Source: a virus
Lineage: Duplodnaviria; Caudoviricetes
Virus record (IMG/VR): IMGVR_UViG_3300009788_000219
Coordinates: 1 to 34,052 of that record
Length of the DNA stretch: 34,052 nt
Strand: one strand, 5' to 3'
In this document: in pieces, positions 2,808-34,044 of the stretch
How positions within the stretch are numbered: position 1 is the stretch's first letter
How the letters are laid out: each line of letters opens with the position of its first letter
The notes under the pieces: model-generated
What the model saw: the letters and a program-made list of their open reading frames with translations, nothing else
Databases searched by the model: none
Told to the model about the DNA's origin: nothing
Made by a program: the position numbers and the translations under genes

Positions 2808-3416
2808 ATGTCAGATTTACAGATTTGGGTTGTAATTGCAGCAGGACTTATCCTTTTAAGTTTTATTTTTTATCTCTTTATAAAACGAGGAGGTAAAATA
2901 ACAACTCCTTATGCTTCTGTTTATATTCCGGATGTTGTCAAAACTGAAGGTCCTTTATCTGAAGAATTAAGTTATTTATATAATAGTACTCTTCCTCAAA
3001 TTAGAGCTGCTTTTGAGCAACGCTTTTTGAAAGAATTAAAAAATAAAGGGATCCCTTCAAATTGGTGGCTTGAAATGGAAGATTATAAATTTTTCCGTGA
3101 AGCTATGGGTAATATTGTGTATTCCGGAAATGGAATCAATTCTATAAAAACTATTTTGGAAAAGGAAGTATGTCAGCATAAAGAAGTTAATGATCGTTAT
3201 ATTCAAAATGTACTTTCCAGATTAAGTGAATGTGCTCGAAAATATTTAAATGTTCAATATGAAGATCATGTTTATGTAGCCCCAGGTGAAATGAGAGAAC
3301 GGATTATAAGTAGCATTGAAGTTTTTACTTTTTGTCAAGAACTATTTGAATCAGTTATTAAAGAACATGTAATTTATTTGTTTGCAGAAAAAGAAAGAAT
3401 ACAAACAGAGAGGTAA
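2808..3416 (+). CDS. Single-pass membrane protein, lysis-cassette associated
   Basis: N-terminal TM helix (IWVVIAAGLILLSFIFYLFI) followed by KRGGK. AGGAGA RBS. Translationally adjacent to the endolysin. Confidence 0.7.
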   Translation: MSDLQIWVVIAAGLILLSFIFYLFIKRGGKITTPYASVYIPDVVKTEGPLSEELSYLYNSTLPQIRAAFEQRFLKELKNKGIPSNWWLEMEDYKFFREAMGNIVYSGNGINSIKTILEKEVCQHKEVNDRYIQNVLSRLSECARKYLNVQYEDHVYVAPGEMRERIISSIEVFTFCQELFESVIKEHVIYLFAEKERIQTER

Positions 3417-3418
3417 AT

Positions 3419-3898
3419 ATGAAACGATACACGTATAGAATTGCCCATCTTGAATCTGTACCAGATATAGATGTTGGAGATATTATAAAACCGGATCAGA
3501 AAATCGGAAGAATGGGTAATACAGGGAAATCAGAATGGCCTCATCTGCATCACGATGTTATTCATGAATATATAACGAGAATAGTTAGACTCAAACAGAT
3601 AGGCTATGAACCACATCATATATACGCACCAAGTATTGAACAATTGAATCATTTTACGGATAAAGGTTTATTCCATTTTCCTTTAGTGATTACTACTCCA
3701 TTTTATGATCCTCAATATAAAATTGATTGGGATAAAGATCATCCAGCATATGATGTAGTGCCGGAAGATAGAAAGAGAACAACTGATCATTTTGATATAT
3801 TCTTTAACAGAACAGAAATAGAAGGTATTTTGTTATTCAAGGGTTATGATTATCAAGGTGGATATGGAAACTACGCATTAATAGGATTTGAGGTGTAA
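3419..3898 (+). CDS. M23-family peptidase endolysin, circularly permuted
   Basis: AHL...VGD...DQKIGRMGNTGKSEWPHLH at the N-terminus. ITTPF...HPAYD...GGYGNYALI at the C-terminus. Confidence 0.85.
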   Translation: MKRYTYRIAHLESVPDIDVGDIIKPDQKIGRMGNTGKSEWPHLHHDVIHEYITRIVRLKQIGYEPHHIYAPSIEQLNHFTDKGLFHFPLVITTPFYDPQYKIDWDKDHPAYDVVPEDRKRTTDHFDIFFNRTEIEGILLFKGYDYQGGYGNYALIGFEV

Positions 3899-3899
3899 T

Positions 3900-4139
3900 A
3901 TGGAATACAAAGACATGAAGTTTATGGATGCTGTAAAGTATCTTCCTACAAGAATAGTAAATGCTATTTCTAAACTTTTGGGAATAAAAGGTATTGTACT
4001 GTATATAACCTATAGTATGATCACTAATGATCATATTCCGGAAAGTGGAATAGTATATGTTTGGATATTTATTGTTCTTATAGTTGTTTTTGGCAGGGAA
4101 GCTTTAACTTTTATAAAGGATCTTAAAAAAGTGGGGTGA
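3900..4139 (+). CDS. Putative holin
   Basis: 79 aa with two hydrophobic segments and a basic C-terminus. Follows the endolysin. GAGGTG RBS. Confidence 0.65.
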   Translation: MEYKDMKFMDAVKYLPTRIVNAISKLLGIKGIVLYITYSMITNDHIPESGIVYVWIFIVLIVVFGREALTFIKDLKKVG

Positions 4140-4540
4140 GTAATGTGGATAAAAAGATTATTATTATTATTATTCTTTCTCTCATTATCATTGGTCTTAT
4201 TTGGTTTGGATTTTCAAGAGGATCTTACTTTGAAACTATTATTGAGCAGATACAGGGACAACGAATCAGCCTTATTAGATCAACAGCGATTATTGAATCT
4301 GAAAATAGTAGAGTTAGAACTGAATCAGCAGAGCTCAGAAAAAACTATATTCAGTCAGAGCAGAACAATATCAAATCAGAAGAAGATAATATCCGACTCC
4401 AAACAGAGAATAAATATTATAGAGGAATCATCGGAGAAATCACAGCAGGAAGTAAAGAAACAGACCAGTACCTTGGGGAATATGGGAGAATCACTGATGA
4501 CTTTGCAGAGTTCCTTCGACAAGCGACAATTACAGATTAA
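4136..4540 (+). CDS. i-spanin-like protein (N-terminal TM plus coiled coil)
   Basis: KKIIIIIILSLIIIGLIWFG followed by a heptad-rich region. Sits after the holin. GTG start at 4136 or 4145. Confidence 0.6.
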   Translation: MSNVDKKIIIIIILSLIIIGLIWFGFSRGSYFETIIEQIQGQRISLIRSTAIIESENSRVRTESAELRKNYIQSEQNNIKSEEDNIRLQTENKYYRGIIGEITAGSKETDQYLGEYGRITDDFAEFLRQATITD

Positions 4541-4625
4541 AATAATGAAATATGTTATATTAGGGTTAGCAGCAGTTGTAACCGCTGAGACAGCTTATAT
4601 TGCAATAGATTATTGGTTTGAATAA
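4143..4625 (+). CDS. Overprinted spanin-partner-like protein (signal peptide, coiled coil, C-terminal TM)
   Basis: Signal-like MWIKRLLLLLFFLSLSLVLFG, an S/Q/L-rich coiled coil, and C-terminal YVILGLAAVVTAETAYIAI. GGGGTGA RBS. No cysteine. Confidence 0.6.
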   Translation: MWIKRLLLLLFFLSLSLVLFGLDFQEDLTLKLLLSRYRDNESALLDQQRLLNLKIVELELNQQSSEKTIFSQSRTISNQKKIISDSKQRINIIEESSEKSQQEVKKQTSTLGNMGESLMTLQSSFDKRQLQIKIMKYVILGLAAVVTAETAYIAIDYWFE

Positions 4626-24246: not shown

Positions 24247-24630
24247 TTAATATTTATTACTTATTCTTATATAGAATTCTTTATATCCTTTATTACTATC
24301 CTTTGGTTGGTATATAATTTCATAAGGTTGTATAGGATATAAACATAACTGTCTGTATCCTATTTTTAAAATTCCAAATTTTAATCCTGCATTAATTAAA
24401 TAATCTGGTTCGAAATGAAGAAGATAAGTATTAACATTTGTAAGTTGAATATTTGTCTTTGTTGTTCCACCAATAAAAAATATATTCCCTATTATTATTT
24501 CAGCTTCTAATAATGTATATTCAATATTTTCATTTACATTTACTTCAATATGTGGATAAATAGCATTTAAACTTTCATAATTAGGTATAAAACTTAACTC
24601 TAATGCAAATAATAATATTAACCAATTCAT
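24247..24630 (-). CDS. Hypothetical exported/membrane beta-rich protein
   Basis: Hydrophobic N-terminus, aromatic-rich strands, AGGAG RBS, and very AT-rich sequence. Confidence 0.6.
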   Translation of the reverse strand: MNWLILLFALELSFIPNYESLNAIYPHIEVNVNENIEYTLLEAEIIIGNIFFIGGTTKTNIQLTNVNTYLLHFEPDYLINAGLKFGILKIGYRQLCLYPIQPYEIIYQPKDSNKGYKEFYIRISNKY

Positions 24631-24632
24631 AC

Positions 24633-25256
24633 TTAACTCCTTACTAAATTAACTCTGGAAACTTTATATCCCAGTTTTTTATTGAATTTCTGAACTATTT
24701 TGTATACCCGATCAGCACTGTCAATCTGATCCTCTTTATGAGTACTTAATAATACCTGTACTTCCAATTGATCACTGATGTCTTTTAGTAATTGAGTCAT
24801 GATAGGAGACCGGACCACATCAAGATTTTTTGCCGGCTCATCCAAACATAATAAATTAGCTGTTTTTCCCATGCTCCATACAGCTAATCTCAATCCTAAA
24901 GCCACTACGTCAGCGAGTCCACCACCTGCAGAATCCAGGGGAGCTTGTTTGCTTCCACCTTTCTCCACAGTGATAGCAGCATGGCTATTGTTGTTCTTTG
25001 TGGTAAAGTCGATATCAAATACATTTCCCGGAAACAAAGCCTGTAGAGGAGTATTAACCAGATCTGAAAGATGATAAGCAATACTTCTTTCAATTTGATG
25101 AGCAGCTGTTTGGATAATTAACTGAGCTTTTTCCACAGCTTCTAATTTTTTACTCAGTTTTACTTTTTTTAGTTCAGCCTGTTCCAGAGATATTTCTGTT
25201 TCTTCCAGGAGATATTTTTTCTTATCCAGTATGTTTCTTAATGCTGTATTATTCAT
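24633..25256 (-). CDS. sbcC: SbcC/Rad50-like ATPase, C-terminal half
   Basis: Signature-like SAGGG, Walker B/D-loop LCLDEPAKNLD and H-loop STH. Confidence 0.85.
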   Translation of the reverse strand: MNNTALRNILDKKKYLLEETEISLEQAELKKVKLSKKLEAVEKAQLIIQTAAHQIERSIAYHLSDLVNTPLQALFPGNVFDIDFTTKNNNSHAAITVEKGGSKQAPLDSAGGGLADVVALGLRLAVWSMGKTANLLCLDEPAKNLDVVRSPIMTQLLKDISDQLEVQVLLSTHKEDQIDSADRVYKIVQKFNKKLGYKVSRVNLVRS

Positions 25257-25425
25257 TTCGCAATTCCTTTAGTTTATCACGTAAAAGTTTACCACCTTTA
25301 GCACCAGATATTCCTCTTTGTGATAATTTAATAAGTACATTTTTTACACTTTCTATTGGCATATTCAATTTATTAGCTATGTCTTTTATAGCTTCTAAAG
25401 CCACATCTAACTCAGTAATCTTCAT
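25249..25425 (-). CDS. 58-aa protein resembling one tape-measure core repeat
   Basis: Ungapped alignment to the TMP segment encoded at 14407-14577 (14/57 identical). Overlaps both neighbouring genes in operon fashion. Confidence 0.6.
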   Translation of the reverse strand: MKITELDVALEAIKDIANKLNMPIESVKNVLIKLSQRGISGAKGGKLLRDKLKELRNE

Positions 25426-25711
25426 CTTCTTCGTCTTCGTCATCATCTATTATAGCATTAAGAATTTCTTCCGGAAGAAGTTCTTGAATTTTAGCTGTGA
25501 GTGTTTCTCGTTTCACCTGGAGCATTGAAATACGTTCTGCAGTTTCTTTCTGTAATGCTTCCATCTCTTCTTTAGTATCACATTTGTATTCAGATTTCCA
25601 TTGGGCTTTAATTTGCTTAATAGCTCCTTCAGTTTCTGCACATTCTGTGGTTAATTCAGCTATTTTAGCCTGTAAAGCTTCTACTTGTTCAATAGTCATT
25701 TCTTTAGACAT
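25412..25711 (-). CDS. Small coiled-coil protein of the split SbcCD locus
   Basis: Two heptad helices and an acidic tail. Lies between sbcD and the C-terminal half of sbcC. Confidence 0.75.
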   Translation of the reverse strand: MSKEMTIEQVEALQAKIAELTTECAETEGAIKQIKAQWKSEYKCDTKEEMEALQKETAERISMLQVKRETLTAKIQELLPEEILNAIIDDDEDEEDEDY

Positions 25712-26579
25712 TAGTTCTTATCTCCTCTAATATATTTTTTACAAGTTTTGAACTGTTCACTGACAGTTTTTTCACGACTTCCCAGAGATCAAAAGACAGA
25801 CCTTTGGAACTTGCTAATTGTTCTGCATATGCTGTAAGGGAATCCTCACGAGCATGTTGCTCTACCAGATATGAATCATCTATCAAGGTCACATCATCAC
25901 TTTCTAATGGGAAAAACCCATAACTGCTATCTTCAGTATCAAAAGCATAGAAACCTACTTCATAATTTTTCTCATCAGCACTTTGCCGGTTTAGACATCC
26001 AGGATTGAAAAGAATAGTATCTTCGTATATTTCTACATAATGTTTATGATAATCTCCAGTGAGTATAAATTCAGCAGTAGGAAATGATTCCATGATATCG
26101 GCAGCTATTTCCGCATTTGCTAATCGGGCCAGACTTTCATTTGCATCAGGCATGATTAATCGATGAATAATCACAATTCCAAATTCTTCAAGAAAATCAG
26201 TATTTTCAAACTTCTTATTCACACCATGGGGCACCACGCCCTTCATTCTCATTAAGTTCCCTATACTGCTGTTATGAAGATTAGCGTACTGGTGATGCTG
26301 TAAATCATGGTTTCCTGGGATAATATGAACCTCCACTGACCAAGGTCCCTCTGCTTTTACAGTGTCCATAGCTTCCGGAATAATATTTACTACCCAGGGA
26401 GGTTGATTAGAGGAATCAAGTATATCACCAACTAAAAGCAATTTATCAACATTTAGATCTCGACATTTCCTGAAGAGTTCTACCACATTATTTTTTTGAG
26501 AGAGGATCCAATCTTCATCTGTTCTTACTCTAGGCCGGTCTCTCCGGAGATGGAAATCGGCACTAACGGCTATTTTCAT
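25704..26579 (-). CDS. sbcD: SbcD/Mre11-like metallophosphoesterase nuclease
   Basis: ADFH, GDILD, PGNHD, GDYH and NPG.L.R motifs. AAGGGG RBS before the ATG at 26579. Confidence 0.9.
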   Translation of the reverse strand: MKIAVSADFHLRRDRPRVRTDEDWILSQKNNVVELFRKCRDLNVDKLLLVGDILDSSNQPPWVVNIIPEAMDTVKAEGPWSVEVHIIPGNHDLQHHQYANLHNSSIGNLMRMKGVVPHGVNKKFENTDFLEEFGIVIIHRLIMPDANESLARLANAEIAADIMESFPTAEFILTGDYHKHYVEIYEDTILFNPGCLNRQSADEKNYEVGFYAFDTEDSSYGFFPLESDDVTLIDDSYLVEQHAREDSLTAYAEQLASSKGLSFDLWEVVKKLSVNSSKLVKNILEEIRTNV

Positions 26580-27813
26580 GTTTATCCCCTTTCCATGATG
26601 ATTTGCAAAGAGGGCAAATAGCAGGGAGTCTCTTTTCATCTTTTTGCAGCATGGTGCTCCATTCTTTTAATGATGCCTCATGTCTTTCAAAAAGAGTGAT
26701 CTCATTAGAAATATTTAATTCTTTATTTTCTAATTCTCCAATAGTGTCATCCAACATTTCTAATTGCATAATTTTATCAGCAGTATTTTCCAACCAAGGT
26801 TGATTATTTTCAAGAAAAAGAATTGCAGTATCATGTTTTATTATTTGCTGTTCAATATTTTGGATATGGAGTGTAGAAAAACCTATATCATTTTCAATTT
26901 CTTTTATCTTAGAAATAGCTTTTTCAGCTTCTGGAAGCCAATCCTGATGTACTACTAAGATTGATTGATTTTTATAAAAAGAAGTGAGAGAAATGTTTAT
27001 AGACTTTTGATTATCAAGTATATGAGCTTCTTTATTATAGAGAGATAACCACCTTTCTACTAAAGGAGAAGTATTTTTAGTCCATTTAAATAATTCAAGA
27101 ACATCTTTTAAACCATTATACTTATCAATTTCTTCGATTATGGTGTTTTCTTTATCTTCCAAATCTTCAATATCTTTCTCTACTTTTTCCAAACGTTTAA
27201 ATACTGGTTCAGCTTTCAAAATCCAGCCTAGAGATTTAATATCTCTTTCACAAGAAGTAATTTTCTCAGTTTCAGCTTCTCTTAATTTTTTAATAGATCT
27301 TTTTTTACTTTCTACAGCAGTTAAAGCTCTTGGGATTTCATCCAGTTTGACAACCGAGTTAAGGAATCTTGCAACTTCCTGGCCTCCTTTACCGCCTGAA
27401 TGAAGCAAGAAAAGACTATCATGCTGATTCTGAATATTGACTTCACCCATGTTAAACCATTTTTTAACTTCATCAGGGACTCCTACACCAGCTCTCGCCA
27501 GATCTTTACCATTAATTCGATAACCATTGAAACTGAGAGATCTTTCCCGAATAAGAATAGAACCATCTTCCCGAATACATTCAACTTTACAAGATCGATC
27601 AATTACAGTCATTCCTTTTTTAGTTTGATGTTTGGCCCAATAGGATATAAAGCCGGTTCCTGCAGGTTCATTATTAACAGCCCAATTCAATCCTCTCATG
27701 ATGGCTGTTTTACCTTCGTGAGATTCTCCGGTTAAACTCGTTATCCCCTCATCCAATTCAATGAAAGAATCAATATGAGCTTGAAAATTAACTAATCTAA
27801 GTGACTTAAGCAT
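26563..27813 (-). CDS. sbcC: SbcC/Rad50-like ATPase, N-terminal half ending at the zinc hook
   Basis: L.L.NFQAH, Walker A GESHEGKT, Q-loop IQNQHD, a coiled coil, and terminal CPLC. Confidence 0.88.
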   Translation of the reverse strand: MLKSLRLVNFQAHIDSFIELDEGITSLTGESHEGKTAIMRGLNWAVNNEPAGTGFISYWAKHQTKKGMTVIDRSCKVECIREDGSILIRERSLSFNGYRINGKDLARAGVGVPDEVKKWFNMGEVNIQNQHDSLFLLHSGGKGGQEVARFLNSVVKLDEIPRALTAVESKKRSIKKLREAETEKITSCERDIKSLGWILKAEPVFKRLEKVEKDIEDLEDKENTIIEEIDKYNGLKDVLELFKWTKNTSPLVERWLSLYNKEAHILDNQKSINISLTSFYKNQSILVVHQDWLPEAEKAISKIKEIENDIGFSTLHIQNIEQQIIKHDTAILFLENNQPWLENTADKIMQLEMLDDTIGELENKELNISNEITLFERHEASLKEWSTMLQKDEKRLPAICPLCKSSWKGDKHENSR

Positions 27814-28310
27814 AAGTACCTCCCATATTCAGCTATAAGTACAGCATCAGCTCTGCCATCTTTTGTTTTTAAAAAAATACTTATCATATCAGGATAATGA
27901 AGCCGGCATAATTCAACAGCAGCCTGTTTTCCTTTCTTCAGTAATTTATGGTGTTTTTTCCATACAGGAGGAGTAGTATAATGAATTCTGCTTCCTCCAG
28001 TAGTTCTTATAATACTTTCAATCCTTCCAAATGTCTGTCCAAAGGCAAAAGCACTTACAGCACCATCTCCAGGCATAGAAGTTACTTTTTCTATTATTAC
28101 TAATTCTGGTCTCCATGCTCTTACCATGTCTTTATACATAATAAAGAACTCTTCAATATCTAATTGATTATTCTTTTTTTGTTTTCCACTTTTAGTTTTT
28201 GTAGTTTTAAAAGTAGTTAATAGAGGCAGATCATGAACTTCAAGAACTTCTTTATGTTGGATAGCAGCGATTGCCCCAGCTACACCAGGATCTATACCTA
28301 TAATAATCAA
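27792..28310 (-). CDS. ruvC: RuvC-like Holliday junction resolvase
   Basis: IGIDPG..GAIA, IIEKV, SAFAFG..FG, P.VWK and DGRADAVLIA motifs. Confidence 0.88.
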   Translation of the reverse strand: MIIIGIDPGVAGAIAAIQHKEVLEVHDLPLLTTFKTTKTKSGKQKKNNQLDIEEFFIMYKDMVRAWRPELVIIEKVTSMPGDGAVSAFAFGQTFGRIESIIRTTGGSRIHYTTPPVWKKHHKLLKKGKQAAVELCRLHYPDMISIFLKTKDGRADAVLIAEYGRYLCLSHLD

Positions 28311-28540
28311 TTGAATAACCTTCTTTGCTTAGGGTCTTCCATTTTATGCATCAGAGCATCATTCAGATAATTTAAACCTAAAGCAGCCAGAACAAATTGT
28401 TCTCTATCATTAAAAGCCATTCTAAGAGACATGCTGAAATTACGATTTCTATTCATATGAATTGTAAATGACTGATATTTAGCATACATTTGTGTGTCAG
28501 TCACATTGTTTTCTTTCATTAATTGTCTAAGATCTTTCAT
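28307..28540 (-). CDS. Hypothetical protein
   Basis: Overlaps both neighbours by 4 nt, consistent with translational coupling. Confidence 0.7.
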   Translation of the reverse strand: MKDLRQLMKENNVTDTQMYAKYQSFTIHMNRNRNFSMSLRMAFNDREQFVLAALGLNYLNDALMHKMEDPKQRRLFN

Positions 28541-29769
28541 TCGTATTTTCTCCCAAGGCCGCTTTTAGCAGCAGCTTCAATAGCTTCCCATTTATCAGTA
28601 ACTTTTTTATCAAGTTCTTTTTTTAATATAGGATCCTTCATTATTTGAAGTCTGAGAGTATTGAAATCAATAGGAGCTCCAAAATGATCATCAAAAATCA
28701 ATTTTAATTTAGGAAAGACAGTTATAAATTTCATTACAATACTAAGTTTAACAGCTCTTTTACCATCTATTTTTTTTCTAAAAGTTTGATATTTCTTTTT
28801 AATACCTTCATTTAAATTTAACCATTCTACTACACCAGCAAGATCTAATTTGGGTTTATCTGCAACTTCCCAGGGAATATTGTTAGCAATAGTTTTTCGA
28901 TACTCACCTTTGTCTTTACTTCTAATATCATAAAGAAAAGTAAGACTGGTTCCAACATCATCAATACCATAGTCAGTATAATAAAGGAAACGAGCTTTTC
29001 TTTTCATTCTGCCATCACGGGACTTAAGACCTTCTACTTCTACAAAGATACCATTTACAAGATCACTACCTTCATTTTTAAGATCTTTAATAGGAGTGAA
29101 CCACACTTCTATATCCATCCAGTGTTTTTTAGCTTTTCCTCCAGAAGTTTTTAATTTTTTCTGATATTGTTTAGCTCCTATTTTTTCCCGAACCTGACTG
29201 ACGATACCCAATATAACTTTACTACCTTGTAGTTTAGCTGTTTGAGTTCGGAAGAATTCCTGACTTAAGAACTTTGCAGAAGCCATCCCATAAGTACCTT
29301 CATCAAAAGTTTTACCTTTCTCATATTCTTCTTTTCTTTTTTTTGAACGACTCATTTTATCTTCATCAGAGATAGAATCTAAACTGTCCATTAAATAAAT
29401 TCCAAAATGCTTTTTGGGAAGCATTCCAAGAAAGATAGAAAGTCTGGCATCCATATCTTCTACTGTTTTAGGTCTAATAGGGAGTTTTTTTGTGTGTTCA
29501 AGTAAAAGATTGCCTCCCATAATATCTACACCATACAATTCAGTAGTATCAAAATTATTTCCATTTTCACCATCTTCATATTGCCAATCAAACTTATCTT
29601 TTCTATGGTGATGTTCTGCAGCAATCATTTCATTTCCGAGCATGGATTTACCACTACCAGTATCTCCACATAGATTGATAGCTATTCCATAGGGAATTCC
29701 AAGTCCTCTGCCTCCTCCAAAATATAAATCAAGTAGATGGCAGCCAGTTCTGGCAAATTCAGTTTTCAT
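28537..29769 (-). CDS. recA: RecA/UvsX-like recombinase
   Basis: TG..LLD...GG…G.P.G, Walker A GDTGSGKS, MDSLD, SQVREKIG…TSGGKA and YGID motifs. RBS-supported start at 29769. Confidence 0.9.
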   Translation of the reverse strand: MKTEFARTGCHLLDLYFGGGRGLGIPYGIAINLCGDTGSGKSMLGNEMIAAEHHHRKDKFDWQYEDGENGNNFDTTELYGVDIMGGNLLLEHTKKLPIRPKTVEDMDARLSIFLGMLPKKHFGIYLMDSLDSISDEDKMSRSKKRKEEYEKGKTFDEGTYGMASAKFLSQEFFRTQTAKLQGSKVILGIVSQVREKIGAKQYQKKLKTSGGKAKKHWMDIEVWFTPIKDLKNEGSDLVNGIFVEVEGLKSRDGRMKRKARFLYYTDYGIDDVGTSLTFLYDIRSKDKGEYRKTIANNIPWEVADKPKLDLAGVVEWLNLNEGIKKKYQTFRKKIDGKRAVKLSIVMKFITVFPKLKLIFDDHFGAPIDFNTLRLQIMKDPILKKELDKKVTDKWEAIEAAAKSGLGRKYE

Positions 29770-30139
29770 TTTTATATCCTTCTTTATTGCTGAGTTTACC
29801 TGGTTTTCGATCCAGGAGCTCTTTGAGGGTGTTATAATCTTCATGATGAATTACATCCTTTCCTTGATAGATACTTACTCTTAAACGATTCATAGCAATA
29901 ATTCTCCACATTCGTGTACGATTTTTATCTTTAGGGAAAGGAATTATTTTCCATTTGGAAGTTCCTTTTCTTATTTTTAAGAATTGAATTAGCTGATCTC
30001 GTTTAAAATACCAATGCTTATCTTTAGGATTCTTCCAGGCAAACGGTTGTAATCTTAAGGTTTGAATAGAATATTCTAATTCAAATCGTTTAATCATTGC
30101 TAAAGCTTCACCAGTCTTTAAGTATACCTCAGATGGCAT
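29759..30139 (-). CDS. Excisionase/MerR-like HTH DNA-binding protein
   Basis: YLKTGEA…SIQTLR…WYFKRDQL..FL pattern. Basic protein. Confidence 0.55.
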   Translation of the reverse strand: MPSEVYLKTGEALAMIKRFELEYSIQTLRLQPFAWKNPKDKHWYFKRDQLIQFLKIRKGTSKWKIIPFPKDKNRTRMWRIIAMNRLRVSIYQGKDVIHHEDYNTLKELLDRKPGKLSNKEGYKNEN

Positions 30140-30142
30140 ATT

Positions 30143-30439
30143 TTATTTCCTCATTGCCAAAACAGTAATTCTAATTGGTTTTTCAGAAGAACAAGTTTCA
30201 CAGACAGTAACTTCTGCACTGAATATCTTATCAGCCATATCTTCATTAGGACCCATCACAGCAGCTAAAGGAGCATGTCCTCCTAGTACCATAGTTAAAC
30301 CCTGCTGCCGTTGTAATGCCTTAGCATTTAAACCATAACGTTCAATTCGAACACGATAAAACAAAGGAACACCAGAAGCTCCAATAGGTTTATTGCATAT
30401 TCCGCAAATTGCAGCTTCTCTTAATTCTTTTTCTTTCAT
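30143..30439 (-). CDS. Small zinc-finger-like protein
   Basis: CGIC … CETC pairs. AAGGA RBS. Confidence 0.7.
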   Translation of the reverse strand: MKEKELREAAICGICNKPIGASGVPLFYRVRIERYGLNAKALQRQQGLTMVLGGHAPLAAVMGPNEDMADKIFSAEVTVCETCSSEKPIRITVLAMRK

Positions 30440-30452
30440 AATTTATTCCTTC

Positions 30453-30478
30453 AAAAAAAGCCCCCTTTACAGAGGGCT
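30453..30478 (-). terminator. Rho-independent terminator after the SSB gene
   Basis: Minus strand AGCCCTCT-GTAA-AGGGGGCT followed by a T-tract. Confidence 0.8.
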
Positions 30479-30498
30479 CTGTTTTTGCAAATATGTGA

Positions 30499-31674
30499 TT
30501 ATTTCTTTTTGGCTTTTTTGGCTTTATAACAGGCCATTTCCAAATCGCAGTCATCACATTCCGGATGTTTTCCATAATCAGGGCCAAACTTAAAATCTTC
30601 AGGACATTTACTTTTAGAAGATTTCTTTTTGGGAGATGATTTAGAATGGGATGTCGTCGAGGAAGTCTTCTTCTTGTTGCTCTTTTTTACTTTTTTTTTG
30701 GCAACTACAGGTTCTTCTTCTTCGTCATCATCCTCATCATCGTCCTCGTCATCTTCTCCATCAGAATCATCATCGTCAGCATCATCTTCTTCGTCTTCTT
30801 CCTCGTCATCATCTTCATCAGAGTCATCATCATCAGGTTCGTCACCTTCTTCTTCCTCCTCTTCTTCATCATCAAGTTCTTCTTCATCTTCATCATCACT
30901 GACTTCATCATCTTCACCGAAGTAGAATTCTTTGATTTCCTTATTAGTCATAAGTACAAGAGCTTCATCCCAGGAAAAAGCTTTATCAATATCAGAATCC
31001 GGAACAGGTTTTTTCCTGTCAATAAAAGAAAACTGTTTGAACTGTTTCTTTTTATCTTCCGGAACGAGAAACTTAACAATCTTACCTTCATCTTCAACTT
31101 CATAAAAGGCAATAACACCCTCACCATCAGCACATTCTTTTGCAGCATCTGCAAGTTCATCACCAAATATAAAGGTGGAAGCATCAAAGAACATGATTTT
31201 ACCTTTGTCTTCACCTGTCACAGGTTTGACATTGTAAACAGCTCTTCTTTTGGCTCCCAAATTAATAGCCAGTTTTTTAGTTTTTTCACTGCCGGATTCA
31301 TTGTATTCATCCCATAATTCTCTGGAAGCATCACATAAGGCACAGGGTTTTCCATAATTTTTCTGGAGGCAAAGAATATCTTTTGTTTTGTTCACATTCT
31401 TATGAACATAATATTCCATTGAATAATGCAGATCACCCACTTCCAGATCTCCGGAAGCTACCTTTGGGAATAAATCAGATTTAATTTCAAAGGGAATGAT
31501 ATTAAATCTGTTTGATTTACCTCTTGTAACTTTGAATACTTCAGGTTTTTTCTTCAATTTTTTAAAATCAAAAACTCCAGTATAAGAAGACATTCCCCTG
31601 GCATTATTGGTATTAACATGGGATTCAACCCTTTCAGATCCTACTTTTCTTGATTTTTTCTTTTTTGTAGCCAT
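30499..31674 (-). CDS. T4 gp32-like single-stranded DNA-binding protein with an acidic linker and Cys4 tail
   Basis: FNIIPF, YYVH…LC…YGKPCALCD zinc motif, KRR.VYNV, and a long D/E tract. Confidence 0.8.
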   Translation of the reverse strand: MATKKKKSRKVGSERVESHVNTNNARGMSSYTGVFDFKKLKKKPEVFKVTRGKSNRFNIIPFEIKSDLFPKVASGDLEVGDLHYSMEYYVHKNVNKTKDILCLQKNYGKPCALCDASRELWDEYNESGSEKTKKLAINLGAKRRAVYNVKPVTGEDKGKIMFFDASTFIFGDELADAAKECADGEGVIAFYEVEDEGKIVKFLVPEDKKKQFKQFSFIDRKKPVPDSDIDKAFSWDEALVLMTNKEIKEFYFGEDDEVSDDEDEEELDDEEEEEEEGDEPDDDDSDEDDDEEEDEEDDADDDDSDGEDDEDDDEDDDEEEEPVVAKKKVKKSNKKKTSSTTSHSKSSPKKKSSKSKCPEDFKFGPDYGKHPECDDCDLEMACYKAKKAKKK

Positions 31675-31688
31675 AATTTACTACTCCT

Positions 31689-32654
31689 TTAATTTTTAGG
31701 TCTTGCTTTAAAGCAATCATTATCTATTTCACAGTCATCACATTCAGGTTCTAATCCGAAAGATTTACCAAAAGAATAACCAGCAGGGCATTTACCTTCA
31801 GGTTTTTCAGCTTTTTTCTTATCAGCTATTTTTTTCTGAATTTTTTTCCCTTCCACCTGATTGATCTCAGCCTGTTCTTTGATTTTTCTTTTAGTAGGTT
31901 TTTGAGCTTTAAGTTTTCCGGCTGCAGTACCTGTTTTTACAGATCTTTTGGTTTTGGGAGGAACAACAACTTCTTCCTCTTCTTCATCCATATCTACATC
32001 AAGATCTTCATCTTCTTCAAGTTCCGGATCAGAAGTACCAATACCATCATTTTCATCATAGAGTTCTTCATCGTTATCATCAATTTCTTCCTCTTCCTCC
32101 TCTTCATTATCATCAATAATTACTGGTTCAGGTTTAGAAAGTTTCTTTTTCTTCTTGCGCTTCTTATTCATTTCAGAAATACTCAGATCCATAGCCTCAA
32201 TTGCAGCATCTTTGGTTTTCTTTTTATTTTCACGAACATCAGCACTTACTTCTTCTTTAAGAAAATATTTAGTAGTGTGTAATTCAGTGAGGATTTTAAT
32301 CATGCTTCTTTTCTGCTGCATAGCTTCTTCAGCTACACGACAGTAACCATGAGCTTTATTAGTAGTAATAAAAACTTTCTGTGCTTCCATTACTTCTTCA
32401 TCAATAACCGTAAGACTTTCAGCCAATTTATCTGTGGGAACCTTTCCTCCAGGTTCATCTGGTGTTTTATGAAACATAAATCTTTCAGCTCTTACTTTAT
32501 CCAGATTCAATTTTGCTTTATCAACATCTTCTTTTGCATTAACTACAAGCATAGCCCATTCACCATAAACATAAGGCTGCATCTCTGCTTCTACATCCAG
32601 CAAATTTTTATTGATCTGCTTATCGGCTCTTAAGTCCCGATTAATCTCTACCAT
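31689..32654 (-). CDS. uvsY: UvsY-like recombination mediator with an acidic linker and Cys4 tail
   Basis: Helical N-terminal domain (LD.E...QP..Y..W, K.T....ES, A..QK..M...L). Adjacent to the SSB gene. Confidence 0.65.
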   Translation of the reverse strand: MVEINRDLRADKQINKNLLDVEAEMQPYVYGEWAMLVVNAKEDVDKAKLNLDKVRAERFMFHKTPDEPGGKVPTDKLAESLTVIDEEVMEAQKVFITTNKAHGYCRVAEEAMQQKRSMIKILTELHTTKYFLKEEVSADVRENKKKTKDAAIEAMDLSISEMNKKRKKKKKLSKPEPVIIDDNEEEEEEEIDDNDEELYDENDGIGTSDPELEEDEDLDVDMDEEEEEVVVPPKTKRSVKTGTAAGKLKAQKPTKRKIKEQAEINQVEGKKIQKKIADKKKAEKPEGKCPAGYSFGKSFGLEPECDDCEIDNDCFKARPKN

Positions 32655-32668
32655 CTATTTCCTCCATT

Positions 32669-33598
32669 TTAATCTGTAAGACTTCTCACAGTTCTTGTTA
32701 TCAATAAAGGCCATGCTGTTCCAGTATCGAACAGAGGCTCTTCAAACCATTCCAACATTTCAGCAATTGCAGAAGCCTTTGACCCATCTCTTAACATAAT
32801 AGAACAACCATAATTTAAAATAGTTCTTCTTATTGTTTCAGGTTCAATTCTTTCTTTCTTAAGAGCACTAAGTAGTTTTAAAGATTTTCCGGAACTACCG
32901 GTAAAGTACATCCTACAGAAGTTTATTACTTCTGGGATGTCTTCACTAAGTCCTGCTACATTGCTCTCAAGGTACTCCTGAATGTATTCTTCTTCCATTC
33001 CGGATACAGTATCCAATAACTTAACAGCATCACGCACATGACCGTCAGCAGCTTCTGTGAGCATTTCTAATACTTCAGGATCCAGAATGAAATTCTCTTC
33101 CCTGCAGATCTTTTTAAGTAATTTTTTAATGGAAGAATCTTTCACTAAATTAAGTTTAATAGGTGTGCATCTGCCTTTGATTTCATCAATAATTTTTTTT
33201 GGATTAGTGGTGCAGATAAAAAAGAAATCACAAGGAGAGGGTTCTTCTAATAATTTTCTGATACCATTCTGAAAAGCTTTACTGGAATCCTGCATTTCAT
33301 CAAGAATCCATCCCCTGTTACCGTGACTGACAACATTGCATTCTTCAATGATATTTTTAGAATCAGCTTTTAAACCATCCTGAGCTAGATTCATTTCTGT
33401 AATATTGTAAGGATCTATTTCTAAAGCTTTACAAGCTACTCTTGCTAAGGTGGTTTTACCTACTCCATGAGGTCCTACAATGATATAAGCCTGAATAGGA
33501 TTATCTTTTTCAACACTTTTTTCCAGAGCAACAACTTGAGGTCCATTTCCAATTACATCTTTGAAAGTAGTAGGTCTATATTTTTTAGTATAACCCAT
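32669..33598 (-). CDS. dnaX: Clamp-loader AAA+ ATPase (DnaX gamma/tau or RFC-like)
   Basis: KYRP.TF.DVIGN, GPHGVGKTT, ILDE, LLEEP, CTT.P, GRC and G.VRDA motifs. Confidence 0.9.
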   Translation of the reverse strand: MGYTKKYRPTTFKDVIGNGPQVVALEKSVEKDNPIQAYIIVGPHGVGKTTLARVACKALEIDPYNITEMNLAQDGLKADSKNIIEECNVVSHGNRGWILDEMQDSSKAFQNGIRKLLEEPSPCDFFFICTTNPKKIIDEIKGRCTPIKLNLVKDSSIKKLLKKICREENFILDPEVLEMLTEAADGHVRDAVKLLDTVSGMEEEYIQEYLESNVAGLSEDIPEVINFCRMYFTGSSGKSLKLLSALKKERIEPETIRRTILNYGCSIMLRDGSKASAIAEMLEWFEEPLFDTGTAWPLLITRTVRSLTD

Positions 33599-34044
33599 TA
33601 AAAAAGCCTCCCAGATTGCCATATTTTTACTACTTCAATTGGAGCTGTGCTTGCTCTAACAGCATTTTCAATAGTTTGCCAAGCTGCTATCCACATCCAT
33701 AATTGATCAAGTCTTTTATTGTTTGGAGGTTGGATAGTACCTTTCACTAATTTTTCAAAAAGTTTATTCTTATAAGGTTTAAGCCAGTCTCCCATATTAA
33801 AATACAGGTCTTCGCCTTGTTTTATAAATCTGACAGCTTTCTTTCTATTCAAGGGGTGAGCTGATTTAGTTATCATATTGGGAAAATCTGATGCAGATCC
33901 ATATTTATATACTTTATTCATTATAGAGAGATTATCAATTTTTTTTATAGCATCTTCTTTTTCTTGCAATCCAGGAGCTAAAACTTTCACAGTAGCTTCG
34001 TACAATTCATCCCTCATTTCTTTATTCGTCATTTCTTTATTCAT
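33598..34044 (-). CDS. Hypothetical protein
   Basis: Its stop overlaps the clamp-loader start (TAATG). No family recognised. Confidence 0.7.
   Translation of the reverse strand: MNKEMTNKEMRDELYEATVKVLAPGLQEKEDAIKKIDNLSIMNKVYKYGSASDFPNMITKSAHPLNRKKAVRFIKQGEDLYFNMGDWLKPYKNKLFEKLVKGTIQPPNNKRLDQLWMWIAAWQTIENAVRASTAPIEVVKIWQSGRLF

Follow-up and report, generated by a model that had tools for sequence, protein, structure and literature searches.

Does the short reading frame at positions 3419–3898 (+) of this phage record encode one half of an M23 peptidase, or a complete enzyme whose two halves stand in swapped order, and what would such an enzyme do for the phage? The window, i.e. the whole stretch of DNA that was analysed, is a tailed-phage record of 34,052 bases, estimated to be 56% complete, with head, contractile-tail and replication genes. 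A replication and repair block occupies 24247–34044 (−) and comprises SbcC/SbcD-like proteins, a Holliday junction resolvase, a UvsX/RecA-like protein, a single-strand binding protein and a clamp loader. Promoter-like sites occur in the window at chance level (16 seen versus 19.7 expected).

The reading frame, preceded by a GAGG-type ribosome-binding site, lies where the preliminary description had placed it, and H10, H42, H44, H108, D112 and a GYGN motif near the C-terminus are all present as claimed there. As read from the sequence, its product of 159 amino acids, a likely endolysin, opens straight on the first β-strand and displays neither a signal peptide nor a SAR anchor. Residues 1–52 (3419–3574, +) correspond to the canonical C-terminal half of an M23 domain: in the alignments, H10 is equivalent to LytM H260, and the HxH histidines H42 and H44 to LytM H291 and H293. 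Residues 89–159 (3683–3895, +) correspond to the canonical N-terminal half, in which the HxxxD residues H108 and D112 are equivalent to LytM H210 and D214, and which also holds the GYGN strand and Y100. Residues 53–88 (3575–3682, +) appear to comprise the loop that follows HxH and the helix of the old C-terminus, together with a linker peculiar to the family, in which D81, L84 and F85 are conserved among relatives and which would tie the old C-terminus to the old N-terminus.

The Pfam profile PF01551 matches residues 3–48 alone (profile positions 44–88 of 96), above the curated cut-off; two partial matches had been predicted, and the second did not appear. We compiled a profile of canonical M23 domains from 59 distinct sequences (63 before removal of duplicates), originating from 16 tandem-M23 proteins and 48 viral loci. 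Since these domains were chosen by their likeness to the first half of the query, only the match to the second half constitutes an independent test. Against this profile the native protein gave two swapped matches, residues 3–51 to positions 81–128 and residues 89–155 to positions 20–76, the latter with an E-value of 0.005 for one target. Profile–profile comparison with hhalign placed residues 3–52 on canonical positions 86–134 of 151 (P 99.5%) and residues 89–157 on positions 25–83 of 151 (P 94.4%, E 8.5e-8), so that the canonical ranges abut at 83/86, in the loop between the GYGN and YAHL strands. The best PDB sequence match includes a faint extra GGYGN match near the C-terminus of the query, which in the PDB chain precedes the main match.

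The two swapped matches were recovered in 145 of the 150 rows of the family alignment versus 15 of 750 controls in which the C-terminal part had been shuffled. By this two-match test, the canonical M23B order, HxxxD before HxH, is thus reversed in 145/150 rows, and the protein is therefore classed as a permuted M23 variant and not as a canonical M23B member. The frame at 3419–3898 is almost certainly a natural circular permutant of the M23/LytM domain; sequence profiles, half-wise structural matches and coevolution all bear out the earlier proposal of a permutation cut in the GYGN/YAHL hairpin loop.

This arrangement is not peculiar to one phage. A first search returned 23 relatives among 30 candidates (43–87% identity over nearly the full length), and a profile search returned 186 representatives at E ≤ 1e-10, the best 150 of 186 being used. 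The 172 proteins collected fall into 129 that possess the permuted domain in full, 16 canonical multi-M23 proteins and 27 partial ones. The family alignment combines the query, the 129 proteins and 20 frames from viral loci (150 rows, 149 distinct), multi-M23 and partial proteins being excluded, and the family extends over more than 100 divergent clusters. Full-length relatives were found neither in cultured phages (three queries with stand-alone or short proteins and one with a fusion protein) nor in plasmids (one query), and PHROGs holds no full-length family (best E 1.7e-16, over 75 members). In the ESM Atlas, look-alike clusters carry ordinary M23 names. An M23 match of Leptospira phage LE1 type was set aside as the C-terminal domain of a very long protein from a different family.

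Most of the 129 members are short, 93 having at most 190 residues and 36 being longer. In the longer members, Pfam detected LysM (2), SH3 (1), SLH (5), GH25 (1), NAGPA (10) and S8 (6) domains, located before or after the permuted domain. The statement that the enzyme has no cell-wall-binding domain is consequently correct for the 159-residue protein but not for the family, as 8 of the 36 longer members carry LysM, SH3 or SLH. All but one of these 36 fall within one 40-row clade, whose FastTree SH-like support of 93 is under the 95 mark. Modular endolysins being typical of single-membrane hosts, this clade may represent phages of such hosts. Six proteins (P0054, P0114, P0122, P0134, P0148 and P0155) display the permuted domain behind a subtilase (S8), often with SLH or NAGPA, an unusual architecture for a lysin. 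A search for longer forms retrieved none at E ≤ 1e-9 among 7,992 candidates, and was insensitive, as known fusions were missed.

In the window, the gene is surrounded by small membrane-protein genes. Right after its stop codon comes the ATG of a 79-residue membrane protein (3900–4139, +), a candidate holin with no family match, homologues of which adjoin the M23 gene in five other loci (L004, L005, L070, L073 and L074). Two genes overlapping each other out of frame follow: a candidate spanin subunit with an N-terminal membrane segment and a predicted coiled coil (4136–4540, +), whose L070 homologue has a weak Rz-like PHROG match (E 2.4e-4), and a candidate second subunit (4143–4625, +) with a signal-peptide-like start, a predicted coiled coil and a C-terminal hydrophobic anchor, devoid of a lipobox. 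Upstream, a protein of 202 residues with a single membrane segment (2808–3416, +; homologue in L073 only) is a possible holin, antiholin or lysis accessory. None of the neighbours of the M23 gene in the window matched a holin or spanin family.

Two features of the surroundings may be mentioned in passing. Directly upstream of the lysis genes, the gene at 1912–2730, with homologues in L073 and L078, encodes a protein with several membrane segments and a C-terminal LuxR-type helix-turn-helix (Pfam GerE, E 0.0015, below the cut-off). The lysis genes themselves (3419–4625, set against 1–1489 and 4848 onward) stand directly before head protease and capsid genes and not after tail genes; similar head-proximal lysis genes are seen in L002 and L004.

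Gene context was then compared across loci. The set consisted of the window and 60 loci (20 viral, two from metagenome-assembled genomes (MAGs) and 38 metagenomic), leaving out L072, the window's own record, and L111; 41 loci were kept after dropping duplicates, loci without a match and loci with less than 1 kb downstream. A small membrane gene comes next after the M23 gene in 33/41 loci versus 4/82 other gene ends in the same loci, a count that overstates independence as several of the 41 are close relatives. It is absent, by the rule used, in the remaining eight, and L003 (from genome G003) has no lysis neighbours at all. An overlapping pair of membrane genes lies downstream in 26 of the 41 loci and at none of the 82 control ends, and in four more loci a single gene hydrophobic at both ends replaces the pair. 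Set against the control ends, the loci thus display the holin/spanin-type neighbourhood of a holin-dependent endolysin. At the level of families, 69 neighbours were scanned (from 158 candidates): two match holin families (L071, E 1.1e-14; L018, E 2.3e-8), and four gave Rz-like matches near E 3e-4, weak values of a kind that coiled coils can produce by chance.

Downstream of the holin-like gene, the paired genes, of about 90–200 residues, share nearly their whole length in different frames (e.g. in L004, L005, L009, L013, L070, L083 and L098). One product has an N-terminal membrane segment or a lipobox; the other starts with a signal-like sequence and is often anchored at its C-terminus. Such pairs may represent an unusual spanin system. 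In L006, L015, L016 and L021, the pair is replaced by one gene, for a lipoprotein-like product anchored at its C-terminus, as in a unimolecular-spanin layout. A lipase-like gene (G-x-S-x-G, read from the sequence) lies between the holin-like and spanin-like genes in L006 (6695–7282) and L016 (1669–2217).

Other lysins were sought in five records rated 100% complete, by scanning 65/68 reading frames in G003, 50/50 in G005, 47/47 in G004, 41/43 in G006 and 48/49 in G010, with G001, G002:C39, G007 and G012 outside the full scan. The frames dropped were opposite-strand overlaps, and short or fetch-boundary frames may be missed. The permuted M23 is the sole recognised lysin catalytic domain in four of the five (G003, G004, G005 and G006); within the baseplate hub of G003 there is, in addition, a short N-terminal match to an endolysin PHROG. 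The fifth, G010, also carries an SLT transglycosylase gene, far from the lysis cassette.

Taken with the gene neighbourhood, these counts make it likely that the permuted M23 is the holin-dependent endolysin of the phage. An active permuted enzyme could conversely be virion-associated, or an accessory wall-remodelling enzyme, as M23 domains act as tail lysins in phi29 gp13, Tal2009 and CwlP according to the accessible sections of PMC9662197. The isolated gene of L003 and the second hydrolase gene of G010 would fit this possibility, which we nevertheless consider unlikely: in most loci the gene is small, stands alone and sits among membrane-protein genes, it occurs in myo-, sipho- and P22-like phages alike, and in four of the five complete genomes it is the only recognised lysin. 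Gene context therefore supports the endolysin role put forward in the preliminary description, a role that we infer from that context; the consulted part of PMC9662197 warns that in vitro proof is wanting for the majority of M23 endolysin calls.

The predicted fold bears on how the two halves would meet. AlphaFold2, run with 24 sequences, gave a model with pLDDT 96.0 and pTM 0.91 (91.8–96.0 over the five models), with strands at both ends (3–11 and 150–158). VIA-align superposed residues 1–83 of the model on LytM 2b0p 251–316 (Z 2.7, rmsd 2.7, 66 aligned), residues 1–82 on lysostaphin 320–384 (Z 2.9, rmsd 2.9, 65 aligned) and residues 73–159 on EnpA 6smk 2–70 (Z 2.5, rmsd 3.0, 69 aligned). Such half-wise alignments to solved M23 chains have low Z-scores (2.2–2.9, rmsd 2.2–3.5) and rank below unrelated chains, which hold the best VIA-align Z of 4.4; their ranges are complementary and swapped. 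A superposition was obtained for each half on the matching half of solved M23 chains but not for the whole domain, as the aligners appear to be order-dependent. Foldseek, whose search is order-dependent so that no significant match was to be expected, retrieved nothing from the PDB at E ≤ 0.001, with no M23 protein among the matches listed, and nothing significant from BFVD, where the M23-type matches were short (e.g. 46 columns, rmsd 1.3).

Coevolution in the 150-row alignment (effective number 135) ranked the pair 7–46 second and the pair 5–154 fifth. The latter sets the first strand against the last, and therefore the hairpin is kept and the loop alone is cut. Further pairs were 31–126 and 47–157, both across the halves, 43–85, 84–113 and 81–131, which may be a family-specific salt bridge holding the new linker. 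Neither coevolution nor half-wise matching distinguishes contacts within a chain from contacts between chains, and both would be compatible with halves acting in trans, i.e. with a domain-swapped dimer or oligomer that rebuilds the active site from two chains. This seems quite improbable, however, given a single-chain model that is confident over all 159 residues and a linker that, at 36 residues, is of sufficient length for the fold to close intramolecularly.

We then considered whether the rearranged domain retains a working active site. In LytM, H210, D214 and H293 bind zinc, H260 and H291 act on water and Y204 serves the oxyanion, according to the portions consulted of PMC4594094 and PMC9662197. 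The counterparts are kept almost throughout the 150 rows: H10 in 149, H42 in 149, H44 in 147, Y100 in 149, H108 in 149 and D112 in all 150, with the six occurring together in 143. All zinc ligands are present, as had been noted for the single protein, and by analogy H108, D112 and H44 would form one zinc site. The H(x)nD (H108, D112) and HxH (H42, H44) motifs that define M23B are thus both found. A further M23 catalytic histidine is described about 30 residues ahead of HxH (LytM H260; PMC9662197, in the part available); H10 sits 32 residues before H42. Y100 lies eight residues ahead of H108 (six for LytM Y204) and, by position and conservation, is the putative counterpart of Y204. In three rows (P0126, P0148 and P0155) HxH has become HxD at the zinc-ligand position H44.

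The enzyme is very likely active, and its chemistry is probably not new. Catalytically dead LytM factors do exist in the M23 family (PMC9662197, as far as accessible), and the half-wise structural matches include EnvC; this would suit an EnvC/NlpD-like protein that activates a host amidase. We regard this as highly improbable, since the zinc ligands and both water-activating histidines remain near-invariant in sequences down to 25% identity.

The integrity of the locus was checked in a second assembly, from one public run that is probably the source sample and so not independent. There, a single contig (3377–4700) spans the gene with no joint, and its copy of the gene differs by five substitutions, none in catalytic codons. 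No RNA dataset figured among the public runs listed as holding the stretch. The upstream gene was tried as the carrier of a missing N-terminal half, and was rejected on its reading frame and a Pfam scan. That Pfam, PHROGs and NCBIfam each recognise only the first half might have suggested a truncated M23 half joined to unrelated sequence, or a misassembly, with second-half motifs arising by chance, but this idea is refuted, with next to no probability left to it, by the hhalign match of the second half, the shuffled control, the invariant D112, the second assembly and a swapped order common to 149 distinct sequences from many separate assemblies, which also disposes of the assembly artefact named as a risk in the preliminary description.

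As to origin, circular permutation by duplication is an established mechanism, and the permuted gene likely arose when an M23 gene was duplicated and the product then lost sequence from each end. P0142 consists of canonical M23 domains in tandem with a short linker, and because the middle of this protein already reads in permuted order, permutation by duplication is plausible. From HxH to the first strand of the next domain, P0142 has about 31 residues versus 47 in the 159-residue protein. No duplication intermediate of the permuted family was found in the sequences examined. Concerning the host, one match each was obtained in a Cloacimonadota MAG and a Chlorobium MAG; neither group was taken to be the host, the matches representing 1/232 genomes of the phylum and 1/138 of the order, and possibly misbinned phage contigs. 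The gene flanking provirus G001 gave no host clue.

The reading that we favour as probable is therefore that of a permuted M23 zinc endopeptidase serving as a holin-dependent endolysin. The chain, which opens with the HxH half and closes with the HxxxD half, would fold as one compact zinc endopeptidase, its new termini in the GYGN/YAHL hairpin loop and its linker joining the old ones. On the model of LytM, the zinc ligands would be H108, D112 and H44; the attacking water would be activated by H10 and H42, with Y100 stabilising the oxyanion. Lacking a signal peptide, the enzyme would accumulate in the cytoplasm until the neighbouring small membrane protein made lesions in the inner membrane, through which it could cross. 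It would then cut peptide cross-links of the peptidoglycan in a zinc-dependent manner, and the overlapping spanin-like pair would break the outer membrane. Our guess, by analogy with ShyA, MepM and gp13 (table in PMC9662197), is that the bond cut may be the cross-link from D-Ala to the diamino acid.

On balance, and with moderate confidence, we lean towards a broader picture: an old, undescribed lineage of permuted M23 enzymes would supply the main endolysin in a wide range of uncultured phages (myo-, sipho- and podo-like), and would have split into a stand-alone form that works with an unusual overlapping spanin-like pair and a modular form whose wall-binding domains lie before or after the enzyme; M23 would have been permuted repeatedly, and many Pfam ‘half M23’ matches would be complete, active enzymes. 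With only half a domain recognised by Pfam and PHROGs, and no significant match from Foldseek, such phages give the appearance of lacking a complete endolysin. M23 enzymes such as lysostaphin, LytM and EnpA are well studied and have been engineered as antibacterials, and the main review presents one fold with two ordered motifs. A natural family with swapped halves implies that the termini of M23 can move to a hairpin loop; binding domains could then be attached at new points, and the effect of terminal position on activity and specificity would be readily testable.

In line with the statement that no example was known, the open full-text literature, as searched, gave no description of a permuted M23, though lysin-database supplements or subscription papers could mention one. 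Indeed, the string ‘permut’ does not occur in the main text of PMC9662197, as far as available, in which the InterPro M23 domain runs from Hx3D to HxH, and the accessible parts of PMC4594094, PMC12419801 and bioRxiv 10.1101/2022.02.15.480533 describe none. Among known systems, EnpA (6smk), the 2638A endolysin and the lysins predicted in transposable prophages of Leptospira are likewise phage-encoded M23 domains. Only the N-terminal 70 residues of EnpA align, and they do so to the last half of the permuted model. The Leptospira lysins, compared by description only, have predicted holins and spanins nearby, and the available text of PMC8705779 mentions no permutation.

Permutation has parallels in other folds. 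M23 is counted among the HABAS (barrel-sandwich hybrid) domains, of which three topologies are linked to one another through circular permutation (PMC11515920, in the sections at hand, which describe no permuted M23 enzyme), and HABAS domains align to the permuted model (e.g. 8emb, 51 residues, rmsd 1.7). The permuted NlpC/P60 proteins (YaeF/G6R, LRAT-like) set a precedent in which natural permutation swaps the order of catalytic residues within a cell-wall-hydrolase superfamily (PMC6403190, as far as accessible), but they have a papain-like cysteine fold unrelated to M23. The closest likeness is to canonical M23B enzymes (PF01551; LytM 2b0p/4ZYB, lysostaphin 4qpb, ShyA, MepM and NMB0315), with which the protein shares the two zinc motifs HxxxD and HxH, the extra histidine before HxH, the conserved tyrosine before HxxxD and, by prediction, the two halves of the fold. 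In contrast with these enzymes, its halves are swapped and its termini lie in the hairpin loop, Pfam detects only 46 of its residues, and its family possesses a linker and a WNRS motif of its own.
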